Positions 2,143-62,869 are shown, counted from the stretch's first letter. The stretch is 64,000 nt of DNA from Deltaproteobacteria bacterium (GCA_022340905.1 JAJDNB010000095.1:10967-74966), one strand, 5' to 3'. Notes: generated by a model not told the origin, from the sequence alone. Numbers and translations are program-made.

Positions 2143-2349
2143 TCAAGACCCCCCATAGCCGATCTCTACTTTTTTGCCTTCCACAATGACCGGCACCTTG
2201 CGCACGCCCTTTGAAAATTTCAACATTGCCTCTAGTTTCTCTGGTTCTGCGACAACGTCCACATAGGTAGCACTGTCACCGTAAGCCGACCTGGCTTGAT
2301 TGGTGTAAGGTCAAGTCGATTTACCGAAGATAATAACTTTTTCTGCCAT
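2143..2349 (-). CDS. Glutaredoxin-like selenoprotein, 68 codons, with an in-frame UGA (Sec) at 2311-2313
   Basis: Translation is MAEKVIIFGKST-U-PYTNQARSAYGDSATYVDVVAEPEKLEAMLKFSKGVRKVPVIVEGKKVEIGYGGS. This is the glutaredoxin fold signature (beta1 - redox motif where CPYC becomes UPYT - ... - VP.I - GG). A strong RBS AGGAGGG sits 6 nt before the ATG. A hairpin AAGCC-AGGUC-GGCUU begins 17 nt after the UGA and contains CAGGUCGGC. The ORF track showed only a spurious 64-aa ORF here. Confidence 0.7.
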
Positions 2350-2466
2350 GCCAACCCTCCTGATGAGTTATCTTACGAGATAAAATAACCACAAAGACCA
2401 CGAAGAACACAAAGATTTTCTTTGTGACCTTTGTGCACTTTGTGGTGAAAGAACACCCATTGTCAT

Positions 2467-11635: not shown

Positions 11636-13624
11636 CTAATCTACCTCACCGGCTTCAACATCCAGAGCCTGACGATCTGCCATATCCATGAGCACGCGCT
11701 CACGCTCACCAATAATACCCAGAGCCTCGCGTTTCTTGTCAATATGGTCGATCACCATGGCGGCCATCTCATAGGGATCGGTGGCAAAACCCCACTTGCC
11801 TAGACCCTGCTTCTCCAACCCGTCAAAGAGCAGCTTGTGAAACTTGGTCTCCGCTATGGTGGGGAAGGTAACGCCAAACACCGTATATATTCCAGAGGCC
11901 ACCACATACTGACCAATGGCTATAGCCTTCTCACTGTACCACTCAGGGGCAACTCCGGCCACCGGCAGATCTGCTATGGTCTCACCCAAACCACCAGTCT
12001 TCACCATCTCAGCACAGGCAACGAGGATCCGGCTGTTGTCCACACAGCTACCCAGTCCCAATACCGGGGGCATGCCTACGGTCTCACAGACCTCCTGCAA
12101 GCCATCACCTGCCAATACCGAGGCATCAGGCTTCATCAACCCGGCCTTGGCCAGAGCTATCTGGGAACAACCAGTCTGCACCACCAAAATGTCGTTTTTG
12201 ATCAGTTCTTTCACCAACTCAACATGCACATAGTCCTGACGCACCCTGGGATTGGTGCAGCCAACCACACCGGCAACTCCCCGAATACGACCATTGATGA
12301 TGTTGTCATTCAAGGGCACATACGATGCCCGGAAGGTACCACCAAGCATGTAGTTGATGTATTCGTGGCTGAAGCCGTGAATCCCCAAAGACTTATTCTG
12401 GGGAATCACTATCTTGGCCTTGCGATTCTTGAATCGCTTGATCGCCTCTTTCACCACCTTGTCCGTGCACTGCCTCGGTTTATGCTCCTCAAACTCAATG
12501 TGCTCCGCACCCTCCATCTTGGCTCGGGGATTGGTGGTGAAAAACTTGGTGCCATAACACTCAGCAAGAGGCGCCAGAGCAGGCATGATACACTGCACAT
12601 CCACTGCCATGGCATCCACTGCACCGGTGATCAAAACCGCCTCGGTGCTCATGAAATTACCCGCATGGGGTATCCCGTGACGACACAATACTTCGGCACC
12701 AGAGCAGCACATGCCCAAAATATTGATGCCTTCGGCTCCCGCTCCCTTAGCCTCTTCCAATAGCTTGGGATCATTTACCGAAGCAATCAAAGACTCAAAC
12801 AGGTTGGGCTCATGACCATTTACAATGATGTTCACCTGCTTCTCATCCAAATAACCCATGTCTACCCCAGCCAAAACCGGAGAGGGCGTGCCAAACAATA
12901 TGTCAGAGATCTCGGTGGCCACCATGGAACCACCCCAACCATCGGCAAGGGCTGTACGACTGCACTGCTTTACCATGTTCTCGTAGTCCTGATCCACTCC
13001 CATGTGGGTCCGGTGCATGATCTCCATGATCTCCCGCATGGCCCCACGGGGAACGATCCCCAGCTCGCGCCACTTGGCCAAGGTCTTGGGCGGTACCCGG
13101 CTGGCAAAGGGAATCTCACCCTCAACCTGAGTGTAGGTACGCTCCAATTCTTTGTAGAGATCCGTGGCTACCTCCTTGACCTCACGACCAGCTGTCTCGA
13201 TACCTAAACCTTCGGCTACATCGAAAAGCTTCTGCTCGTCTTTGATTTTGTAGTCCTTGATCTCACCATTTACCACGCCACGAAACACATCCAGCATGGT
13301 CATGCCGTGGTCCGTGTGGGCCGCAGTACCCGCTGCCACCATCCGGGCAAAGTTCCGCGAGGCGATGGTGTCGATGGTTGCCCCGCATATGCCCGTCTTC
13401 GCATAGGGATCCTTGGAGGACAGCCGGCAGGGACCCATGGAACAGTGCTTACAACAGGCAGAGTCAGCTCCTATGGGACAGGCCTTCATCTCCGCTGCCC
13501 GGTGAAAGGCGGTCTCTACCCCGTCTTCCGCTGCCTTGCGCAACATCTGCTGGGTGGATTTGCAGGTGGTTACCTGCATGATCGGTAGTTCTTTCTTTTT
13601 CTTCTCCTTTACCTCTTCTGCCAT
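11636..13624 (-). CDS. cooS: Anaerobic Ni-dependent carbon monoxide dehydrogenase catalytic subunit
   Basis: 662 aa. N-terminal cluster motif CPIGADSACCKHCSMGPCR with further Cys/His ligands. Homologous to the adjacent Hcp, as expected for the prismane/CODH family. Confidence 0.85.
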   Translation of the reverse strand: MAEEVKEKKKKELPIMQVTTCKSTQQMLRKAAEDGVETAFHRAAEMKACPIGADSACCKHCSMGPCRLSSKDPYAKTGICGATIDTIASRNFARMVAAGTAAHTDHGMTMLDVFRGVVNGEIKDYKIKDEQKLFDVAEGLGIETAGREVKEVATDLYKELERTYTQVEGEIPFASRVPPKTLAKWRELGIVPRGAMREIMEIMHRTHMGVDQDYENMVKQCSRTALADGWGGSMVATEISDILFGTPSPVLAGVDMGYLDEKQVNIIVNGHEPNLFESLIASVNDPKLLEEAKGAGAEGINILGMCCSGAEVLCRHGIPHAGNFMSTEAVLITGAVDAMAVDVQCIMPALAPLAECYGTKFFTTNPRAKMEGAEHIEFEEHKPRQCTDKVVKEAIKRFKNRKAKIVIPQNKSLGIHGFSHEYINYMLGGTFRASYVPLNDNIINGRIRGVAGVVGCTNPRVRQDYVHVELVKELIKNDILVVQTGCSQIALAKAGLMKPDASVLAGDGLQEVCETVGMPPVLGLGSCVDNSRILVACAEMVKTGGLGETIADLPVAGVAPEWYSEKAIAIGQYVVASGIYTVFGVTFPTIAETKFHKLLFDGLEKQGLGKWGFATDPYEMAAMVIDHIDKKREALGIIGERERVLMDMADRQALDVEAGEVD

Positions 13625-14049: not shown

Positions 14050-15684
14050 ATGTACATGTTTTGTTATCAATGCGAGCAAACGGCAAAAGGTGAAGGGTGC
14101 ACCAAGATAGGGGTATGTGGCAAGGAACCCGAGGTTGCTGCCCTTCAAGATCTATTGACCTACGGACTTATCGGGCTTTCTCAATATGCTGTCGAGGGCC
14201 GTAAAGTTGGCGTTAGCGAGCGGGACGTCAATGTATTTACAGTCGAGGCTTCTTTTTCCACCTTGACTAATGTGGACTTCGATCCTGATCGCTTCGTGGG
14301 CTTGATCAATCAAGCGGTGGAAAAGCGAGAGGGACTGGCGGAGAAAGTCAAGGCTGCGGGCGGAAAAGTTGATTTCGCCGATGGGCCTGCCACCTTCAAA
14401 CCCGAGACCACCCTGGACGGCCTGATCCGGCAGGGAGAGGCAGTGGGCATTAAGTCCTATCCAGCAGACAATCCCGATATTCTTTCCCTGAAACACACGG
14501 TGCTCTTTGGTATCCGGGGAATATCCGCTTATGCAGACCATGCGCAGATTCTCGGACAAGAGGACGACACAGTCTATGGCTTCGTCCACGAGGCTCTTGC
14601 GGCACTGTGGAGAGAAGATCTCGGACTGGAAGATTGGGTTGGATTGGCCCTCAAGTGCGGTGAAATAAATCTCAGGACCATGGAACTTCTAGATGCTGGA
14701 AATACAGGAACCTACGGGCATCCTGTGCCAACAAAAGTTCCGTTGGGACATAAGAAAGGCAAGGCCATCCTGGTCTCGGGTCACGACCTGAAAGACATGG
14801 AAGAACTGCTCAAGCAGACACAAGGCAAGGGAATCCATATTTACACGCACGGCGAGATGCTACCTACCCACGGTTACCCGGAGCTAAAGAAATACGAGCA
14901 TTTTTACGGTCATTATGGCACAGCTTGGCAGAACCAGGGCAAAGAGTTCATGCAGTTCCCTGGTGCTATCTTGATGACCACAAACTGTATCCAGAGGCCC
15001 AAGGAGGAGTACAGGAATAACATCTTTACCTGCGGCCTGGTTGGCTGGCCCGGGATAGCCCACATCTCCGACCGCAACTTTCAGCCGGTCATCGATCGAG
15101 CTCTTGCCCTACCGGGATTCCAGGAGGATGAAAACGGCAAGGATGTAATGGTGGGATTCGGCAGGAATACCGTCTTGGGTGTTGCCGATAAGGTCATCGA
15201 GGCAGTAAAGGGCAAAGCCATCCGTCACTTCTTTGTAGTGGCAGGCTGCGATGGAGCCAAGCCCGGTCGGAATTACTACACCGAGTTCGTGGAAAAGGTT
15301 CCCGAAGATACCGTGGTTTTGACCTTTGCTTGCGGCAAGTTTCGATTCTTCGACAAGGACCTGGGAGACATCGGTGGTATTCCGAGGTTGCTGGACATTG
15401 GCCAGTGCAATGACGCCCATTCGGCAATCCAGATTGCCGTGGCCCTGGCTAACGCTTTTAATGTAGGAGTCAATGATTTGCCCCTGTCGATAATCTGCTC
15501 GTGGTATGAGCAAAAGGCAGTGGCGATCCTTTTGTCCTTGCTCCATCTGGGAATCAAGGACATTCGCCTTGGACCTTCTCTACCGGCCTTTGTTTCCCCC
15601 AACGTCCTCGATGTCTTGGTGAAGAACTTCGACATCAAACCCATTACCACGCCGGACCAGGATCTCAAGGCGATTTTGGGATAG
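14050..15684 (+). CDS. hcp: Hybrid-cluster protein (hydroxylamine reductase)
   Basis: N-terminus MFCYQCEQTAKGEGCTKIGVCGK, 544 aa. RBS AAAGGAGGA. Confidence 0.9.
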   Translation: MYMFCYQCEQTAKGEGCTKIGVCGKEPEVAALQDLLTYGLIGLSQYAVEGRKVGVSERDVNVFTVEASFSTLTNVDFDPDRFVGLINQAVEKREGLAEKVKAAGGKVDFADGPATFKPETTLDGLIRQGEAVGIKSYPADNPDILSLKHTVLFGIRGISAYADHAQILGQEDDTVYGFVHEALAALWREDLGLEDWVGLALKCGEINLRTMELLDAGNTGTYGHPVPTKVPLGHKKGKAILVSGHDLKDMEELLKQTQGKGIHIYTHGEMLPTHGYPELKKYEHFYGHYGTAWQNQGKEFMQFPGAILMTTNCIQRPKEEYRNNIFTCGLVGWPGIAHISDRNFQPVIDRALALPGFQEDENGKDVMVGFGRNTVLGVADKVIEAVKGKAIRHFFVVAGCDGAKPGRNYYTEFVEKVPEDTVVLTFACGKFRFFDKDLGDIGGIPRLLDIGQCNDAHSAIQIAVALANAFNVGVNDLPLSIICSWYEQKAVAILLSLLHLGIKDIRLGPSLPAFVSPNVLDVLVKNFDIKPITTPDQDLKAILG

Positions 15685-16086: not shown

Positions 16087-19000
16087 ATGGCAAAGAGAAG
16101 TCTTCTGTCCTCTCTTCGCTTTCTTAGACCTCGAACCACCTGCGTAAAGGAAGCCCTTGCTGGGGGCTGGGCTGAGGTCCGTTGCGGCGAGCGGGATTGG
16201 GAGGATTTCTATCGAAAAAGATGGCAGTATGACAAGAAGGTCCGTTCAACTCATGGGGTCAACTGCACAGGTTCCTGCTCATGGGATGTTTACGTCAAGG
16301 ACGGGATTATAGTATGGGAGACCCAGAGAGGCGACTATCCGAGTTGCGGACCCGATCTTCCCGACCACGAGCCTCGGGGCTGCCCCCGGGGAGCTACCTT
16401 CTCCTGGTACACCTATAGCCCGGTACGACTAAAATACCCCTACATTCGCTCGGTCTTGTTAGAAATGTGGCGAACTCAGATCGATTCCACGGACGATCCG
16501 GTGACCGCCTGGCAGACCATTGTGGAGGATGAAGAAAAGAGGAAAATCTACCAACAAGCTCGGGGAAGAGGTGGATTTGTTCGTGTTCCCTGGGAGGAAG
16601 CTGCCACTCTCATAGCAGCATCCTTAGTGTATACCATAAAGAAATATGGACCAGAGAGAATATTTGGCTTTACCCCCATCCCCGCCATGTCTATGGTTTG
16701 CTATGCTTCGGGCGCACGCTTTCTTTCTCTCATAGGCGGGTCCTTGATCAGCTTTTACGACTGGTACTGCGATCTGCCCCCTGCATCTCCCCAAATCTGG
16801 GGCGAACAAACAGATGTTCCGGAAAGCGCTGACTGGTATGAGTCGAGTTATATGATTGTCTGGGGGACTAACCTGCCTATGACCCGAACCCCTGACGCCC
16901 ACTTCTTCACCGAGGCACGCTACCGGGGGGCCAAGGTTGCAGCGGTAGCGCCAGACTACGCTGAATATGTGAAATTTGCCGACACCTGGCTACCGGCCAA
17001 GGCTGGTACTGACACCGCCCTGGCCATGGCTATGACCTTTGTTATTTTCAAGGAATTCTACCTAGAGCGACCCTCCGAGTACTTCACATCCTATGCGAAA
17101 GCCTATACGGATCTTCCCTTCGCCGTGGTTTTAAAATCAAAAGATGAACTGTACGTGTCGGAGAGGTTTTTAAGAGCCTCAGACCTAGGTTTCGACCAGG
17201 AAAACGGAGAATGGAAAACACTCTATTACGACCTGAACAGCAAGACTTTTGTAGTGCCCAACGGCAGCATAGGTTTCCGTTGGAACGAGGAAGGACGGTG
17301 GAATCTTCACCAGCTTGATTCAGTGAGTGGGGAAGCGGTGGATCCGCTCCTGAGCTTTGCCGGGGAAAATGATGGGTGGGTGTCCGTCGGCTTTCCCTTG
17401 TTTGATTTCCAAGGTGCAAAGGTAAGAATTGGTAAAGTTCCGGTGAAAAGAATAGTGGGGGACGGTGAGGGAATTACGGTCGCGACGGTCTTTGATCTCA
17501 TGGCAGCCAACCTTGGGATGGACAGGGGACAAGGAGGAGAGGTTGCCAAGGACTATGATGAGGCGAAAGCTTACACGCCCGGTTGGCAGGAGGCTATAAC
17601 CGGCGTTTCCAAAGCTGATGTGATCAGAGTAGCTCGGGAATTCGCCGAGAATGCGGACAAGACTAAGGGAAAGTCCATGATTTTTCTGGGGGCAGGCACC
17701 AACCACTGGTACCACAACGATATGACCTACCGGGCCATCCTGAACCTCACCACCCTCTGCGGCTGCCAGGGGGTAAACGGTGGTGGCTGGGCCCACTATG
17801 TTGGTCAAGAGAAGATTCGCCCCCAGGCTTCCTGGTCTGCAATTGCATTCGGCCTGGATTGGCGCCGGCCGCCGAGACAGCAGAATGGCACTTCCTTTTA
17901 CTATTTTGCCACTGATCAGTACCGCTACGAGACCTTTGACGCCAGTCACCTACGTTCCCCCTTGGCCGAGAAGTGGGTGGATAAACACTTGGCTGATTAT
18001 AACGTGATTGCCGCGAGGCTCGGCTGGCTGCCCTCCTATCCTCAGTTCAACCGGAACCCTTTGCAGCTGTGCAAAGAGGCGGTAGAAAATGGAGCTACCT
18101 CCGATGAAGAAATCATCTCTTACGTGGTGGAGAGGCTGAAGAAAGGAGAAATAAAGTTTGCCCTGGAAGACCCGGACAGTCCGGAAAATTGGCCTCGCCT
18201 ACTTTTTCTGTGGCGAGCAAATCTGCTGGGTGCCAGCGGCAAGGGGCATGAGTACTTTCTCAAACATCTTCTGGGAACAGAGCATTCGGTGTTAAATCGT
18301 GAAAGTGAGAAAAAGACAGAGGAGGTTCTGTGGAGGGATCCTGCCCCCGAAGGCAAGCTGGATCTCTTGGTCACCTCAGAGCTCCGAATGTCTACCAGTG
18401 CTCTTTACGCTGACGTGGCCTTACCCGCGGCATCTTGGTACGAGATGCATGATCTCAGCACCACGGATCTGCACTCTTTTATCCACCCTTTTAACCCCGC
18501 AATTGATCCTCCCTGGGAGAGCAGGACAAATTGGGATCAGTTCAAAACCATTGCCGAGAAATTTTCTGAACTGGCGGTTGGTCATCTCGGTGAAGAAAAG
18601 GATTTAGTTGCCACTCCCTTGCTCCACGATTCTCCTGGAGAGATCGCCCAACCTAAGGTGAAAGACTGGAAAAGGGGTGAGGTGGAGCCTGTACCCGGAA
18701 AAACCATGTCGAACCTCACCGTGGTGACTCGGGACTACCCGAATACTTACAAGATGATGACCTCATTGGGGCCACTGGTGGCTAGTGTGGGGATCGGTTC
18801 CAAGGGGGTGACCTGGAAGGCGGATCAAGAATACGAGGACCTGAAGGCAAAATTGGGAACGGTCTCAACTGGCGGAGTAACTGAGGGGATGCCTCAGTTG
18901 CAGACAGGTAAGCAAGTGGCGGAAGCGATCCTGGCTCTGGCCCCGGAGACCAATGGAAACACAGCGGTAAAGGCGTGGCAGACCCTAGAGAAAAAGACAG

Positions 19001-19770
19001 GACTCAATCTGGCCCATTTGAGTGTTGAGAGAAAAGGGGAAAAGATGAGTTTTGCAGATCTTGATGGACAACCGCGCAAGATCATCACCAGCCCCATCTG
19101 GAGTGGCATAGAGTCCGAAGACCGTTTTTATTCGCCCTTTGTGATTAACATAGAGGAAAAAGTTCCCTTTCGCACCCTCACTGGTCGGGCCCAGTTCTAC
19201 CAGGATCACGAGTGGATGTTGGCCTTTGGTGAGGGGTTGCCGGTTTTCCGGCCACCTTTGGACATGCAGGCCCTGGGCTCCACCGAGATTGGTCGCAGTG
19301 ATAGCAAAGAAATTATCTTAAACTATCTCACCCCCCATTCCAAATGGTCCATTCATAGCACCTATTCCGATACTCTGATCATGTTAACTCTCTTCCGGGG
19401 AGGAGAGGCTATCTGGATCAATGACGAGGATGCGTCCTCCATTGGCGTCGAAGACAATGATTGGCTCGAGTGCTTCAATGTCAATGGAGTGGTGATGGCA
19501 AAGGCTGTTGTAAGTCACCGAATCCCCAGAGGGAAAGCTTTCATGTATCACGCTCAAGAGAGAATGATCAACACTCCCGGGTCGCAGCTGTCAGGTAAAC
19601 GAGGGGGAACCCACAACAGCGTTACTCGTATCCTGGTGAAGCCAACCCAAATGATTGGCGGATATGCTCAACTGAGTTACGGCTTCAACTATTATGGCCC
19701 CACAGGTGCCCAAAGGGATGAAGTTATTGTGGTCCGGAAGGCAGGAAAGGTTGATTGGTATGAAGATTAA
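16087..19770 (+). CDS. narG: Respiratory nitrate reductase alpha subunit
   Basis: 1227 aa. N-terminal FS0 region HGVNCTGSCSWDVYVKDG. Mo-bisMGD domain architecture. Confidence 0.95.
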   Translation: MAKRSLLSSLRFLRPRTTCVKEALAGGWAEVRCGERDWEDFYRKRWQYDKKVRSTHGVNCTGSCSWDVYVKDGIIVWETQRGDYPSCGPDLPDHEPRGCPRGATFSWYTYSPVRLKYPYIRSVLLEMWRTQIDSTDDPVTAWQTIVEDEEKRKIYQQARGRGGFVRVPWEEAATLIAASLVYTIKKYGPERIFGFTPIPAMSMVCYASGARFLSLIGGSLISFYDWYCDLPPASPQIWGEQTDVPESADWYESSYMIVWGTNLPMTRTPDAHFFTEARYRGAKVAAVAPDYAEYVKFADTWLPAKAGTDTALAMAMTFVIFKEFYLERPSEYFTSYAKAYTDLPFAVVLKSKDELYVSERFLRASDLGFDQENGEWKTLYYDLNSKTFVVPNGSIGFRWNEEGRWNLHQLDSVSGEAVDPLLSFAGENDGWVSVGFPLFDFQGAKVRIGKVPVKRIVGDGEGITVATVFDLMAANLGMDRGQGGEVAKDYDEAKAYTPGWQEAITGVSKADVIRVAREFAENADKTKGKSMIFLGAGTNHWYHNDMTYRAILNLTTLCGCQGVNGGGWAHYVGQEKIRPQASWSAIAFGLDWRRPPRQQNGTSFYYFATDQYRYETFDASHLRSPLAEKWVDKHLADYNVIAARLGWLPSYPQFNRNPLQLCKEAVENGATSDEEIISYVVERLKKGEIKFALEDPDSPENWPRLLFLWRANLLGASGKGHEYFLKHLLGTEHSVLNRESEKKTEEVLWRDPAPEGKLDLLVTSELRMSTSALYADVALPAASWYEMHDLSTTDLHSFIHPFNPAIDPPWESRTNWDQFKTIAEKFSELAVGHLGEEKDLVATPLLHDSPGEIAQPKVKDWKRGEVEPVPGKTMSNLTVVTRDYPNTYKMMTSLGPLVASVGIGSKGVTWKADQEYEDLKAKLGTVSTGGVTEGMPQLQTGKQVAEAILALAPETNGNTAVKAWQTLEKKTGLNLAHLSVERKGEKMSFADLDGQPRKIITSPIWSGIESEDRFYSPFVINIEEKVPFRTLTGRAQFYQDHEWMLAFGEGLPVFRPPLDMQALGSTEIGRSDSKEIILNYLTPHSKWSIHSTYSDTLIMLTLFRGGEAIWINDEDASSIGVEDNDWLECFNVNGVVMAKAVVSHRIPRGKAFMYHAQERMINTPGSQLSGKRGGTHNSVTRILVKPTQMIGGYAQLSYGFNYYGPTGAQRDEVIVVRKAGKVDWYED

Positions 19771-21181
19771 AGCGCAGATTGGGATGGTTCTAAATTTGGA
19801 CAAGTGTATCGGTTGCCATACCTGCAGCATTCCCTGCAAGAATGTCTGGACCAATAGGACTGGAGCCGAATACATCTGGTTCAACAACGTGGAGACCAAG
19901 CCGGGGATCGGCTACCCTAAGAAATGGGAGAATCAGACGATCCACAAGGGTGGCTGGAAGATGGATGCAAAACTTCGCCTTCGTGCTGGCGGTCAACCGA
20001 GCAAGCTGTTGAAGATCTTTCACAACCCTGATTTACCAGCCATTGATGAATATTACGAGCCTTGGACCTACAACTATGACAAGTTGATTTCCACTGCCCA
20101 GAAAAAACATCAGCCTTCAACCAGGCCCCAATCCCTGATCACTGGCAAGCCCATACGGCTCAGATGGGGCCCAAACTGGGAGGACGATCTAGCCGGGGTC
20201 AGTGAAACGGGCACGGGAGATGTTAATTTCAACAACCTGGACTACCAGGTTTACCTGCAGTTCAAAAAAGTGTTTATGTTTTACCTCCCCCGCCTTTGTG
20301 AACACTGCCTTAATCCAGCCTGCGTGGCCTCTTGTCCCTCAGGTGCTCTCTACAAGCGGGAGGAGGATGGAATCGTCTTGGTGGATCAGGAGAGATGCCG
20401 TGGGTGGCGATATTGTGTTTCAGGTTGTCCATACAAAAAGGTCTATTTCAACTGGGAGACCGGTAGATCCGAAAAATGTATTTTCTGTTATCCCAGAATT
20501 GAAGCAGGAATGACCAGTCTCTGCGCTGAGACCTGTGTTGGCAAGATACGCTATGTGGGTGTCATTCTCTACGATGCAGATAAAATTGCCATGACAGCCT
20601 CCACTGAGAAAGAGCAAGAACTGTATCCCGCCCAAGCCAGGATGTTCCTGGATCCCACGGACCCGGCAGTTGTTGCCGAAGCTATTTCTCAAGGAATACC
20701 GCAGAGCTATATCGAAGCAGCCCAACAGTCTCCGGTCTATAAGTTGGCGGTAGACTGGCAATTGGCCTTCCCACTCCATCCTGAATTCAGAACCCTGCCC
20801 ATGGTCTGGTACATTCCGCCACTGAGCCCTCTGGTGCAGTTTTTCGACGAATCTGTTGCTGATGTCCACGATCCTGAGGTGATGAGAATTCCATTGACCT
20901 ATCTTGCCAATCTTCTCACTGCCGGCGATAGGGAACCGGTCCGGATGGCATTGCGTCGACTCATGGCCCTGAGAAGCTACATGCGTTCCAGGCGGCTGGA
21001 AGGTAAAGCAGATGCTCATGTTCTTGAAAAAGTGGGAATGACCGAGGAGATGGCACAGGGGATTTACCGATTGCTTGCCATCGCCAAATACAAAGATCGT
21101 TTCGTCATTCCTACCACAAAGAAAGAAACGGAGGTCGATCTCTATCGCGGCCAAGGGGCCGCGGGGTTTGATTCGCATTGA
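19760..21181 (+). CDS. narH: Respiratory nitrate reductase beta subunit (4 Fe-S clusters)
   Basis: MKIKAQIGMVLNLDKCIGCHTCSIPCKNVW canonical NarH N-terminus. Start 19760 overlaps the narG stop by 11 nt. The ORF-track start at 19694 is an upstream extension. Confidence 0.95.
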   Translation: MKIKAQIGMVLNLDKCIGCHTCSIPCKNVWTNRTGAEYIWFNNVETKPGIGYPKKWENQTIHKGGWKMDAKLRLRAGGQPSKLLKIFHNPDLPAIDEYYEPWTYNYDKLISTAQKKHQPSTRPQSLITGKPIRLRWGPNWEDDLAGVSETGTGDVNFNNLDYQVYLQFKKVFMFYLPRLCEHCLNPACVASCPSGALYKREEDGIVLVDQERCRGWRYCVSGCPYKKVYFNWETGRSEKCIFCYPRIEAGMTSLCAETCVGKIRYVGVILYDADKIAMTASTEKEQELYPAQARMFLDPTDPAVVAEAISQGIPQSYIEAAQQSPVYKLAVDWQLAFPLHPEFRTLPMVWYIPPLSPLVQFFDESVADVHDPEVMRIPLTYLANLLTAGDREPVRMALRRLMALRSYMRSRRLEGKADAHVLEKVGMTEEMAQGIYRLLAIAKYKDRFVIPTTKKETEVDLYRGQGAAGFDSH

Positions 21182-21327
21182 GCATAGCGCAATGTCCAGC
21201 AGGCAGCGGGCAGATTGCAGCAGGCAGCCAGAGAGTAAGAGGTCGGAAATCAGAGAGTAGAGAGTACAAGAGAGCTGGCTACTGAGAAAGAAGCGGGGAC
21301 ATGGGTTTGGTTGTATAGGAGAAGGAG

Positions 21328-21870
21328 TTGGTGGTGGTTATAAACGAGGAAAATCGACATCTGTTAAAGGTGCTATCGGCTCTGCTTCAGTATCCCGACG
21401 AGGAACTTGTTCTTTTGCTCGATGAGTTGAAGGAAGCGGTTGGAGAAATTCCCCAAGAGGAGCACCGAGAAAAGTGCGTGAATTGCTTAGACTATCTGGA
21501 GAATAATTCGTTGATCCACTTACAGGAGGAGTACACAGCGACCTTTGACTTAAACCCCGCAACCAGCCTTAATCTTACTTACCACAAGTGGGGAGATGCC
21601 CGGGAAAGGGGAAGTGCTCTCTCCGATTTAAATTACCTTTATCACACAGCCGGCTACGATAGCTCCGATGACGACCTGCCTGATTATCTCCCGTTAATAT
21701 TGGAGTTTCTCTCCATAACTACATTAGCAGACAGTTTTTTGTTTCTTGGACAGTACTGTGACCAGGTGGAAGCTGTGGGTTCGCGCCTCAGAGAGAAAGG
21801 CAGTCCATATGCCGGTCTTTTTGAGATTGTCCTGGATATTTTTAGAGATTTACGAGGTAACGGAGACTGA
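21328..21870 (+). CDS. narJ: Nitrate reductase molybdenum cofactor assembly chaperone (TorD family)
   Basis: 180 aa, lying between narH and narI. LLQYPDEEL N-terminal pattern. Confidence 0.75.
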   Translation: MVVVINEENRHLLKVLSALLQYPDEELVLLLDELKEAVGEIPQEEHREKCVNCLDYLENNSLIHLQEEYTATFDLNPATSLNLTYHKWGDARERGSALSDLNYLYHTAGYDSSDDDLPDYLPLILEFLSITTLADSFLFLGQYCDQVEAVGSRLREKGSPYAGLFEIVLDIFRDLRGNGD

Positions 21871-21874
21871 GGAA

Positions 21875-22558
21875 ATGAACACGTTAAACACGCTCGCATT
21901 TTTAGTTTTCCCATACTTGGCGATCACTACCTGTGTAGTCGGTCATCTATACCGTTACCTTAGCGATCCCTACGGCTGGAATACGAGGTCGAGCGAACTT
22001 CTCGAAAAGAAGGGGTTAAAGTTTGCGGCCACGATTTTCCACTGGGGAATTATTTTTACCCTACTGGGACACGGAGCTGGATTGCTGGTCCCCCAAAAGT
22101 TTTGGGATGCGATGGGCATGGACAGCCAGACTCACACGGTGTTTGCCACCTATAGCGGTCTCGTTGTTGGGTCTGCGGCTCTATTGGGCCTTACCCTGTT
22201 ACTTTTTCGCCGACTCACCAAGGATCGAATACTGGCCACCACAACGCTGAACGATTTTGTCACCATAGGACTGCTGTTTTTTGTTGTCGCCACAGGGACT
22301 GCCAATGTTGTCATTAGTCTGTACGAACACTTTGACATTCTTACCACTGTTGCCCCATGGCTTCGCGGAATCGTCACCTTCACTCCAGATCCGACTCTCA
22401 TGCTCAGGGTGCCCCTGAGATTCAAGCTTCACATTCTCGGAGTGTTGACCCTAACAGGATTTTGGCCTTTTAGTCGCTTAGTGCATGTGTGGAGCATACC
22501 ACTCACTTATATTTTCCGCAGATGGATCATATTTAGAAAGAGAGAGGCTGTTTTATAA
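21875..22558 (+). CDS. narI: Respiratory nitrate reductase gamma subunit (dihaem cytochrome b)
   Basis: 227 aa from MNTLNTLAFLVFPYLAITTCVVGH (start 5 nt after the narJ stop). Five TM helices with conserved His. The ORF-track start at 21746 is an extension overlapping narJ. Confidence 0.85.
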   Translation: MNTLNTLAFLVFPYLAITTCVVGHLYRYLSDPYGWNTRSSELLEKKGLKFAATIFHWGIIFTLLGHGAGLLVPQKFWDAMGMDSQTHTVFATYSGLVVGSAALLGLTLLLFRRLTKDRILATTTLNDFVTIGLLFFVVATGTANVVISLYEHFDILTTVAPWLRGIVTFTPDPTLMLRVPLRFKLHILGVLTLTGFWPFSRLVHVWSIPLTYIFRRWIIFRKREAVL

Positions 22559-26559: not shown

Positions 26560-26822
26560 CCGCGTGGTCTATTTGGGTTCGGAAGGAATTTGAAATTTCT
26601 CATATTATTGTGATAGGTATCTTGACAATTTCTTCAAAGTCGGCTTTAGTTATTAAATCATAGCGATTTTCTATCTTTTCATAAACACCCGCACCACAAC
26701 GTCTAGTAACAATTCAAATACATGTTTCGCAAGATCATGAGGCGCCGTTTGTGAGCTTGAACTAATTGGTGGTAGACAAAACTCAAAGGACCTAACCTAA
26801 AATCCTATTGAGGAACGGAACC

Positions 26823-27374
26823 ATGAAAAAGTTCGTCAAGCCCGCTATTTTCATCGTCATTGGTATAATTATCGCCTTTCCATTGTTCAGTCTCACCTAC
26901 TACACCATGGTGCGCACAACCACGCCCCAATTCTGCGCCACCTGCCACGAAATTCAATTTGCCTACAACACTTGGAAGACCTCCACCCATGTGAACAATG
27001 AACAGGGCTTTGTGGCCGACTGCATGGATTGCCATCTGCCGGCTCCGCACGACACCTTTAATTTTTTCTATGCCAAAACCTGGCACGGTGCTAAAGACGT
27101 CCTCCTCCACTTTTTCCAGAGCGAGTATGACCACGAAGAACAGCGACGTGAAGCCTATGCTTCCTTTAAGAATGACCAGTGTCAGAAATGCCATCGCAAT
27201 CTCCTTTATATTCCCAATAAACGTGGTGCTATGCTTGCTCACCGTGACGTGGTCTATGCCAGGCCCGGCTACGAGAAGAAATGCGTTGATTGTCATAAAA
27301 ACCTGGTTCACAACCCCAGAGAGTATTACGATTACAAACAATACGGAGAAACATACCGCGGTTTAGGTTCGTAA
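26823..27374 (+). CDS. NapC/NirT/NrfH-family membrane tetraheme cytochrome c quinol dehydrogenase
   Basis: N-terminal TM helix, then four CxxCH motifs (CATCH, CMDCH, CQKCH, CVDCH). ATG start at 26823 behind GAGGAA. The ORF track used an upstream TTG. Confidence 0.85.
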   Translation: MKKFVKPAIFIVIGIIIAFPLFSLTYYTMVRTTTPQFCATCHEIQFAYNTWKTSTHVNNEQGFVADCMDCHLPAPHDTFNFFYAKTWHGAKDVLLHFFQSEYDHEEQRREAYASFKNDQCQKCHRNLLYIPNKRGAMLAHRDVVYARPGYEKKCVDCHKNLVHNPREYYDYKQYGETYRGLGS

Positions 27375-27460
27375 CCAGAGTAATTAACATCACCGAAGTT
27401 GCCTGGAGTGCACAGTGGCACTCTGGGTGCCTGAGGTTAATCTAGAAAGGGGGTGAAGAA

Positions 27461-62140: not shown

Positions 62141-62869
62141 CTAGTCGGGGGTGCTGAGTCTTCTGAGTGCTTTTTTCAATGCGGCGATGTGGACGTCACC
62201 AGCGAAATGAACTGGGCTCTTTCCGTGGATGGGATCCCAACCAGAAGGATCTGCTGAGCAGAAGAACTGGGTTTCAAGTCCAATGCGGAATATGGCATCC
62301 TCGACTGGTAAACCCTCTACCCGTTTAGCTGCATCCCACGTTGCTCCACAAGGGGCACCTCGGATCACCTCGACGCTGGTCACCTTCTCCTCCGCGGTTT
62401 CTACTTCAAACTCTGGAGAACCGAATAATTCCCCGTATTGACCCAGGCCGACCTGCCTGGAAAGACCGCATCAAGTTGGGGGGACAAAAATCCTCTGGCC
62501 TTTCACTTTTTTGCCCGAGGCAACTACTGGGATTTTACTCCTGGCGCAGGCAGCGGCGAGATCGTGCGAGAGGTCAGGATGTTTCAAAAAGTCCAAAACC
62601 AGGTCTGCCTGAATATCTTCGGGTAAATACTCCGAAGTATTATCGAGGATCGGAGGCAAGGGCTCGTCGATAGATATTGTCTCAATGATAAAAAAATCCT
62701 TTCCGTATTTTTTTATGCCCCGTATTTTCTTTTCACCGCTGCCATTCTGTTGAAATACCAAGATTCTTTGAGGGTTAGCAGATTTTAGTGTTTCGCCTTC
62801 CCCGGGAATGAAGCAACCTTTGCACTTCTCTGTGATCACTGATAGCGACCTTTCAGCCAGCGGTGTCAT
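62141..62869 (-). CDS. Cys-rich selenoprotein candidate of about 242 aa, with an in-frame UGA at 62471-62473 joining two ORF-track ORFs
   Basis: ORFs 62471-62869 and 62141-62383 are in the same frame, separated only by TGA. Read-through gives ...RIFVPPT-U-CGLSRQVGLGQYGELFGSPEFEVETAEEKVTSVEV... The hairpin CCAGGC-AGGUCG-GCCUGG starts 14 nt after the UGA and contains CAGGUCGGC. N-terminal CKGC, later APCG and FFCSADP. Start overlaps the upstream PilZ gene stop (ATGA). Confidence 0.65.

Follow-up and report, generated by a model that had tools for sequence, protein, structure and literature searches.

UXX-star selenoprotein family 1, curated as NF041114, corresponds to the "Distant Grx-like protein 1" that appears in Table 1 of Zhang et al. 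2026 (PMC13188914) with a UxxT motif and 2 selenocysteine (Sec) residues. The same paper credits distant Grx-like protein 1 to Zhang & Gladyshev 2008, cites Haft & Tolstoy 2025 (mSystems 10:e0141724) for other UXX-star families, and gives family 2 a single Sec and the motif GxGU (PMC13188914). Families 2 and 3 (NF041211 and NF047338) and the HUGP/GUXX-star fusion (NF045501) are built on the same glutaredoxin-like (Grx-like) module of ~70 aa and share a C-terminal U-x-x-stop; the fusion protein has an extra N-terminal domain. In mammalian thioredoxin reductase, Sec is the redox centre of a mobile C-terminal Gly-Cys-Sec-Gly tail, and in SelL, a thioredoxin-fold protein, the two Sec of a UxxU motif form a diselenide. 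Bacterial Sec codons are followed by a SECIS (selenocysteine insertion sequence) hairpin. In the consensus model its upper stem has 4-16 bp and carries an apical loop of 3-9 nt with G in one or both of the first two positions, the spacing is 16-37 nt, and the minimum free energy does not exceed -7.5 kcal/mol (PMC13188914, Fig. 2A legend).

We hereby compare with these systems a gene on the minus strand of the window, which is the whole stretch of 64,000 nucleotides analysed. Positions 2134-2349 very probably encode, as judged from sequence comparison, a 71-residue member of UXX-star family 1 with a truncated Grx fold and two Sec residues, the UGA codon of each being recoded through a SECIS hairpin of its own. 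The start codon ATG (2349-2347) lies 5 nt downstream of the Shine-Dalgarno sequence AGGAGGG (2361-2355), just as the initial annotation had read it. Under the ordinary code the frame from 2349 to 2143 translates as MAEKVIIFGKST*PYTNQARSAY...VEIGYGGS*, and the full translation as far as the second TGA is MAEKVIIFGKST*PYTNQARSAYGDSATYVDVVAEPEKLEAMLKFSKGVRKVPVIVEGKKVEIGYGGS*, each asterisk standing for a TGA. The first TGA, codon 13 (2313-2311), places Sec in the N-terminal UxxT motif as U13-P-Y-T16, the active-site motif of the protein. Past the second TGA, codon 69 (2145-2143), the frame runs TGA GGG GTG TGA (2145-2134), which reads U-G-V-stop with the true stop TGA at 2136-2134; the complete product is MAEKVIIFGKST-U-PYT...GYGGS-U-GV. 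U69 lies three residues from the C-terminus within G-G-S-U-G-V, and the protein has the C-terminal Sec-x-x-stop of the family, a layout common to all 81 genes compared here. The initial annotation had closed a 68-codon gene at 2143; the gene has 71 codons and ends at 2134, and because the supposed stop was the second Sec codon, both the C-terminal U-x-x-stop motif and the hairpin in the 3' UTR were missed. The remark that stop-to-stop ORF calling cannot see such a gene was correct, since the ORF list shows only a 39-aa GTG-started fragment (2143-2262) and a 40-aa out-of-frame ORF.

With Cys written for Sec, the 71-aa product reaches 109 bits against NF041114 (curated equivalog cut-off 72 bits) and is matched along the whole profile, positions 1-70 of 70; writing X for both Sec leaves a score of 95.7 bits. 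The Pfam model Glutaredoxin PF00462 is passed as well (31.6 bits, cut-off 22.9). Glutaredoxin equivalog models give 12-23 bits against cut-offs of 84-205; GRX_bact scores 23.2 bits (cut-off 90), GRX_euk 21.4 (87) and NrdH 14 (86). The gene had been described as an unannotated selenoprotein gene, and it is unannotated here, yet by its sequence it is no new kind of gene: its family is already catalogued and curated, and for this reason its novelty is low.

The two UGA codons were followed in a sample made of the window and 80 loci from a scan of one genome per species, so that counts are out of 81. The 80 loci belong to Desulfobacterota (Syntrophobacterales and others), Nitrospirota/Thermodesulfovibrionales, Desulfotomaculaceae/Pelotomaculum and Spirochaetes, and the closest of them is in the MAG CP070689.1, at 89% identity. 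Codon 13 is TGA in 69 genes, TGC in 8 and TGT in 4, that is, Sec in 69 and Cys in 12, and Thr16 is invariant across the orthologues. Together with the SECIS hairpin behind the codon, these counts uphold the reading of the UGA as Sec in place of the first Cys of CPYC, with Thr in place of the resolving Cys, and they supply the Cys orthologues with TGC at codon 13 that this reading led one to look for.

A coding signature is present on both sides of codon 13, with an entropy near 1.5 at third codon positions and near 0.6 at the first two: the values at positions 1/2/3 are 0.64/0.61/1.47 for codons 2-12 and 0.79/0.65/1.63 for codons 24-68. The sequence downstream of the UGA, whose conservation had been named as a check, is therefore conserved as coding sequence among the 81 genes. 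These data also bear on the idea that the locus is a decayed glutaredoxin pseudogene, or that the 39-aa GTG-started piece (2143-2262) is the real product. The ORF list does give the 39-aa piece only, and the same or similar fragments are recorded as "glutaredoxin" (JGI); but the codon 13 TGA and the 12 codons 5' of it are conserved under purifying selection in Desulfobacterota, Nitrospirota, Desulfotomaculaceae/Pelotomaculum and Spirochaetes, the ATG at 2349 has a strong ribosome-binding site in front of it, and a product of 39 aa would be without strand 1 and helix 1. We give this explanation next to no probability.

Conservation at the second UGA is stricter still: none of the 81 genes departs from TGA at codon 69, and in every one exactly two codons follow before a stop. 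The tail reads UGV in 63 genes, UGI in 11 and otherwise in 7, and the true stop is TGA in 51 genes, TAA in 28 and TAG in 2. The TAA and TAG stops of these 30 genes establish that the true end of the frame is two codons beyond the second TGA. A separate consequence of the counts is that 51 of the 81 genes terminate at a UGA placed 9 nt after UGA69, a recoded and a terminating UGA thus standing two codons apart; the third UGA, codon 72, would act as a real stop because it would be too near the loop of the second hairpin for recoding.

It could be objected that only codon 13 is recoded and that the TGA at 2143-2145 is a genuine stop, giving a single-Sec protein of 68 residues. TGA is often a genuine stop in the window, where it ends 14 of the 39 long ORFs; the 68-aa version, with Cys for Sec, already exceeds the NF041114 cut-off at 100.2 bits; and the second hairpin is a weak one when folded alone (-6.4 kcal/mol). 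The 68-aa version, however, covers only profile positions 1-67 of 70, and the profile runs three positions further, with the score rising to 109 bits. Moreover, all 81 genes would have to use TGA for such a stop, with two conserved codons behind it (G-V or G-I in 74), then a further stop (TAA or TAG in 30 of them) and, at a fixed distance, a hairpin that covaries in all seven pairs; the homologue P0042, finally, has Cys at the place of codon 69. We regard a single-Sec protein as very improbable. Sec insertion at both UGA codons is what the comparative data predict.

A search of protein databases returned 44 relatives, and many of the public gene calls among them read TGA as Trp. From such Trp-read relatives (for example ...GKSTWPYT...GYGGSWGVWLLIGDES...) it is clear that TGA occupies both positions as well as the stop. 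Cys is found at position 13 in the relative P0030 and at the C-terminal Sec position in P0042. These calls raise the question of whether TGA is a standard amino acid here, Trp or Gly as in genetic codes 4 or 25, with no selenium involved, since the public metagenome proteins P0001-P0032 have W at both positions and run past the stop. Against this, both positions alternate with Cys and never with Trp or Gly codons, a covarying hairpin lies behind each TGA, and the read-through tail "LIGDE" is nothing other than the second hairpin translated. The Desulfobacterota and Nitrospirota lineages to which the hosts' MAGs belong are not known to use codes 4 or 25. The 14 of 39 long window ORFs that end in TGA exclude a reassignment, whose probability we set at practically nil.

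The same records form an observation on databases in general. Public metagenome sets carry the family in two wrong forms (P0001-P0032 and P0034-P0043): in one, TGA is read as Trp and the protein runs on into the 3' UTR, the second SECIS appearing as the conserved peptide "LIGDE"; in the other, a C-terminal fragment of 39 aa is named "glutaredoxin". The gene thus illustrates two routes by which double-Sec genes are lost in annotation, as a 39-aa fragment and as a run-on with TGA taken for Trp.

The hairpin behind the first UGA (SECIS 1, 2297-2283, minus strand) has a 5-bp helix AAGCC/GGCUU and the loop AGGUC (2292-2288), and it lies within codons A19-R20-S21-A22-Y23. The initial annotation had recognised this hairpin and put it 17 nt after the UGA; the spacer from the UGA to the hairpin base is in fact 13 nt, 17 being the number of the first stem base when the U of UGA is counted as 1, and the loop begins 18 nt past the UGA. 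When the 69 Sec forms are aligned without gaps, 98.8% of the helix is paired, with compensatory changes in two of its five pairs (GC in 31, AU in 24 and GU in 8 for one; CG in 52 and UA in 12 for the other), and Ala19 GCC/GCT covaries with Ser21 TCG/TCA. All 69 Sec forms have the loop AGGTC, the Arg20 codon AGG (never CGN) and the peptide ARSAY. This constancy of the loop, like the TGA at codon 13 in 69 of 81 genes, goes well past what chance would give. Only 2 of the 12 Cys forms keep AGGTC, and in them ARSAY loosens to AISAF, ALSAF, ALAAH and the like; since ARSAY is invariant in the Sec forms and relaxed in the Cys forms, it is largely an RNA constraint. A lower helix for SECIS 1 (2302-2305 with 2277-2280) was considered and dropped, because it folds in the window but is only 60% paired across the family.

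The second hairpin (SECIS 2, 2131-2115, minus strand) stands in the 3' UTR just past the true stop and consists of a 7-bp helix ACUCAUC/GAUGAGU with the loop GGA (2124-2122), which in the window begins 18 nt past the second UGA. RNAalifold, run on a MAFFT alignment of 80 sequences, returned this same 7-bp helix with compensatory changes in 7 of 7 pairs. Its cells are paired in 89.5% of cases; shuffles give 65.7% (none of 500 reaching 89.5%), and shifting the partners by 1-3 columns leaves 20-45%. A hairpin stands right behind the true stop in every genome, and the sequences themselves diverge widely, from ACTCATC-GGA-GATGAGT in the window to GCCGGCA-GGC-TGCCGGC and ACCGATA-GTT-TATCGGT. The position of the loop is kept: it starts 16-21 nt past the UGA in 70 of 80 genes, 37 of which have it at 18 nt, and most of the 80 loops start with G, as GGU, GGA, GUU, GUC or GGC.

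Both elements lie within the limits of the bacterial model for loop size, stem length, loop G and spacing, SECIS 1 with a loop of 5 nt on 5 bp and SECIS 2 with one of 3 nt on 7 bp. The energy limit is reached by both only with flanks that are not conserved. SECIS 1 gives -5.0 kcal/mol for the conserved hairpin alone and -9.2 to -10.3 only with the non-conserved lower stem; SECIS 2 on its own gives -6.4 kcal/mol, and short flanks bring it to -7.0, longer ones to -11.1. Single-sequence folding z-scores of the two hairpins are unremarkable, being uninformative at such short length, and the case for the SECIS elements consequently rests on position and covariation. An Rfam scan of 1800-2700 at E<=1 gave a chance miRNA match under threshold only, and no SECIS family. 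By the comparative evidence each UGA is shown to have behind it its own bacterial SECIS hairpin, through which it would be recoded; a putative role of the hairpins in SelB binding and read-through is supported by their covariation and by the loss of the motif in Cys forms.

As for the decoding machinery, ARAGORN found no tRNA, and hence no tRNA-Sec, in the 64-kb window, and a Pfam scan of its 39 long ORFs found none of selA, selB and selD. A scan of intergenic TGA read-through ORFs, on the other hand, revealed dfsP, an unannotated gene for a DUF166 family (seleno)protein at 62141-62869 on the minus strand (NF041372, 340.8 bits, cut-off 200). Its in-frame TGA (62473-62471) lies in FVPPT-U-CGLSRQ, and 16 nt 3' of the UGA starts a 7-bp hairpin, UCCAGGC-AGGUCG-GCCUGGG. 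As a second selenoprotein gene, dfsP makes it very likely that the organism decodes Sec. With the gene model corrected, two Sec residues are added to the selenoproteome of the organism, which, counting dfsP, would carry no fewer than two selenoprotein genes within 64 kb.

The structure was approached through the homologue P0007 (79% identical, with Trp in place of Sec), whose AF2 model has a mean pLDDT of 80. The model has beta1 at residues 5-9, alpha1 at 14-26, beta2 at 27-31, alpha2 at 36-46, beta3 at 54-57 and beta4 at 60-63, with no helix after beta4, and residues 69-71, where Trp likewise stands for Sec, form a disordered tail with pLDDT below 50. The top Foldseek matches are glutaredoxins, the best solved structure being the A. 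fulgidus glutaredoxin 3ic4 (TM 0.70). According to the model, the fold is Grx-like, a truncated beta-alpha-beta-alpha-beta-beta arrangement without the C-terminal helix. The initial annotation had spoken of a complete glutaredoxin fold: the PF00462 and 3ic4 matches support the glutaredoxin part of that description, and the missing C-terminal helix of the P0007 model contradicts "complete".

Within this fold, U13 occupies the canonical nucleophile position at the start of helix 1, and U69 stands two residues past the invariant Gly-Gly. The Gly-Gly kink of glutaredoxins borders the active site. The protein may be a stand-alone small redox carrier in which U13 would be the attacking nucleophile and U69, carried on the flexible tail after the Gly-Gly kink, would be its partner, since Thr here replaces the resolving Cys of CxxC. 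The two residues could then join in a selenenylselenide, replaced by a selenenylsulfide in the Cys13 variants. It is possible, if somewhat doubtful, that U13 and U69 form a reversible intramolecular diselenide and that the protein is a natural bacterial diselenide redox protein of very low potential. Were this true, the N-terminal partner would be replaceable by Cys, as in 12 of 81 genomes, the C-terminal Sec codon being TGA in all 81 sampled; and in the Cys13 variants the supply of selenium would choose between a truncated product of 68 residues and one of 71, a selenium-dependent switch. The conserved C-terminal TGA, the alternation of Sec and Cys at position 13, the SECIS in the 3' UTR and the stop at a third UGA together provide a concrete hypothesis for an uncharacterised family.

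The two selenolates might instead chelate a soft metal or organometal (Hg, As) jointly, the protein serving as a carrier or buffer. Metals or unknown substrates have been suggested as possible ligands of the Sec residues in the UXX-star family (PMC13188914), and in the window hgcA, hgcB, a CopZ/MerP-like chaperone and a heavy-metal P-type ATPase, all at 31690-36041, point to soft-metal chemistry in the organism. These metal genes are, however, about 29 kb away, no metal-related neighbour is conserved at the 81 loci, and the scaffold is a thiol-disulfide oxidoreductase fold with a nucleophile in the canonical position. We consider a metal-ligand role rather unlikely; it is compatible with the redox role of a U13-U69 pair, the two not being mutually exclusive. 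Gene context does not help to choose between them, for a search across the 81 loci gave no family-wide gene partner. No neighbour is kept in more than 19 of the 81 loci, and the Beta-Casp hydrolase, the NUDIX gene and the PAS sensor kinase are common only to close Syntrophobacterales-like relatives (9-19 of 81 loci). In Nitrospirota, as judged from reading of the sequences, the copies adjoin apparent dTDP-rhamnose biosynthesis genes.

Several other features of the window were recorded. Immediately upstream, between the Beta-Casp gene and the selenoprotein gene, nested inverted repeats CACAAAG/CTTTGTG occur at 2390-2440 (minus strand); a terminator-like hairpin at 2426-2408, after the upstream Beta-Casp gene, may be the terminator of that gene or a regulatory element. 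A promoter scan gave one weak sigma-70-like site, inside the selenoprotein gene, which is no more than in shuffles. Further along the window are a narGHJI-like respiratory nitrate reductase operon (16087-22558, plus strand), two Prismane/CO-dehydrogenase-family genes (11636-13624, minus strand; 14050-15684, plus strand) and a pair consisting of NapC/NirT and a multihaem cytochrome (26808-28858, plus strand). The mercury-methylation pair occupies 31690-33023 on the plus strand, with hgcA matching NF040863 at 452 bits (cut-off 275) and hgcB matching NF040864 at 115 bits (cut-off 99), and is followed by the CopZ/MerP-like HMA protein (33276-33482) and the heavy-metal P-type ATPase (33588-36041). 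A Sec form of HgcB is known; the protein of the window was rejected as a third selenoprotein because it is the Cys form, GVGC.

As regards known systems, the initial annotation had likened the first hairpin to the SECIS of E. coli fdhF, and the fdhF sequence it used (TGACACGGCCCATCGGTTGCAGGTCTGCACC...) is correct, being present without a mismatch (100% identity) in the fdhF gene of 5419 E. coli genomes. The likeness consists of a hairpin directly 3' of the UGA with a G-rich loop at equal distance: counting from the U of UGA, the fdhF loop GGUC is at nt 22-25, and the window loops are at 22-26 (AGGUC) and 22-24 (GGA), SECIS 1 also sharing the string AGGUC. The conserved stems here, at 5 and 7 bp, are far shorter than that of fdhF, and neither a conserved bulged U nor a long lower helix was found in them (the lower helix of SECIS 1 being 60% paired). 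In addition, SECIS 2 is in the 3' UTR, with a spacer running across the stop codon, whereas the fdhF element is wholly coding.

Like classical dithiol glutaredoxins (CPYC; 3ic4), the protein has a thioredoxin-type beta-alpha-beta-alpha-beta-beta core in which helix 1 carries the nucleophile at its N-terminus, a V-P motif comes before strand 3 and a Gly-Gly after strand 4. It differs from them in having U-P-Y-T for C-P-Y-C, without the resolving Cys, in being without the C-terminal helix, and in bearing a Sec-containing tail after the Gly-Gly. Its resemblance to mammalian thioredoxin reductase is limited to the position of a Sec, 2-3 residues from the end in a flexible C-terminal tail, with no homology between the two. 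In SelL a single UxxU motif contains both Sec; here 56 residues separate them, and a bond between them is only inferred.

The closest relatives are the UXX-star proteins. NF041211, NF047338 and NF045501 are matched at E-values of 1e-11 to 1e-13, with the window protein scoring 44-49 bits, far under the respective cut-offs of 97, 100 and 325. Of family 1 it is a member in every respect, with an end-to-end match over ~70 aa, a Grx-like scaffold, UxxT, two Sec and a C-terminal U-x-x-stop. Nothing at this locus alters what is known of this kind of system, and no difference of substance separates the protein from its family, in which the SECIS 2 loop GGU is commoner than the GGA of the window's lineage.
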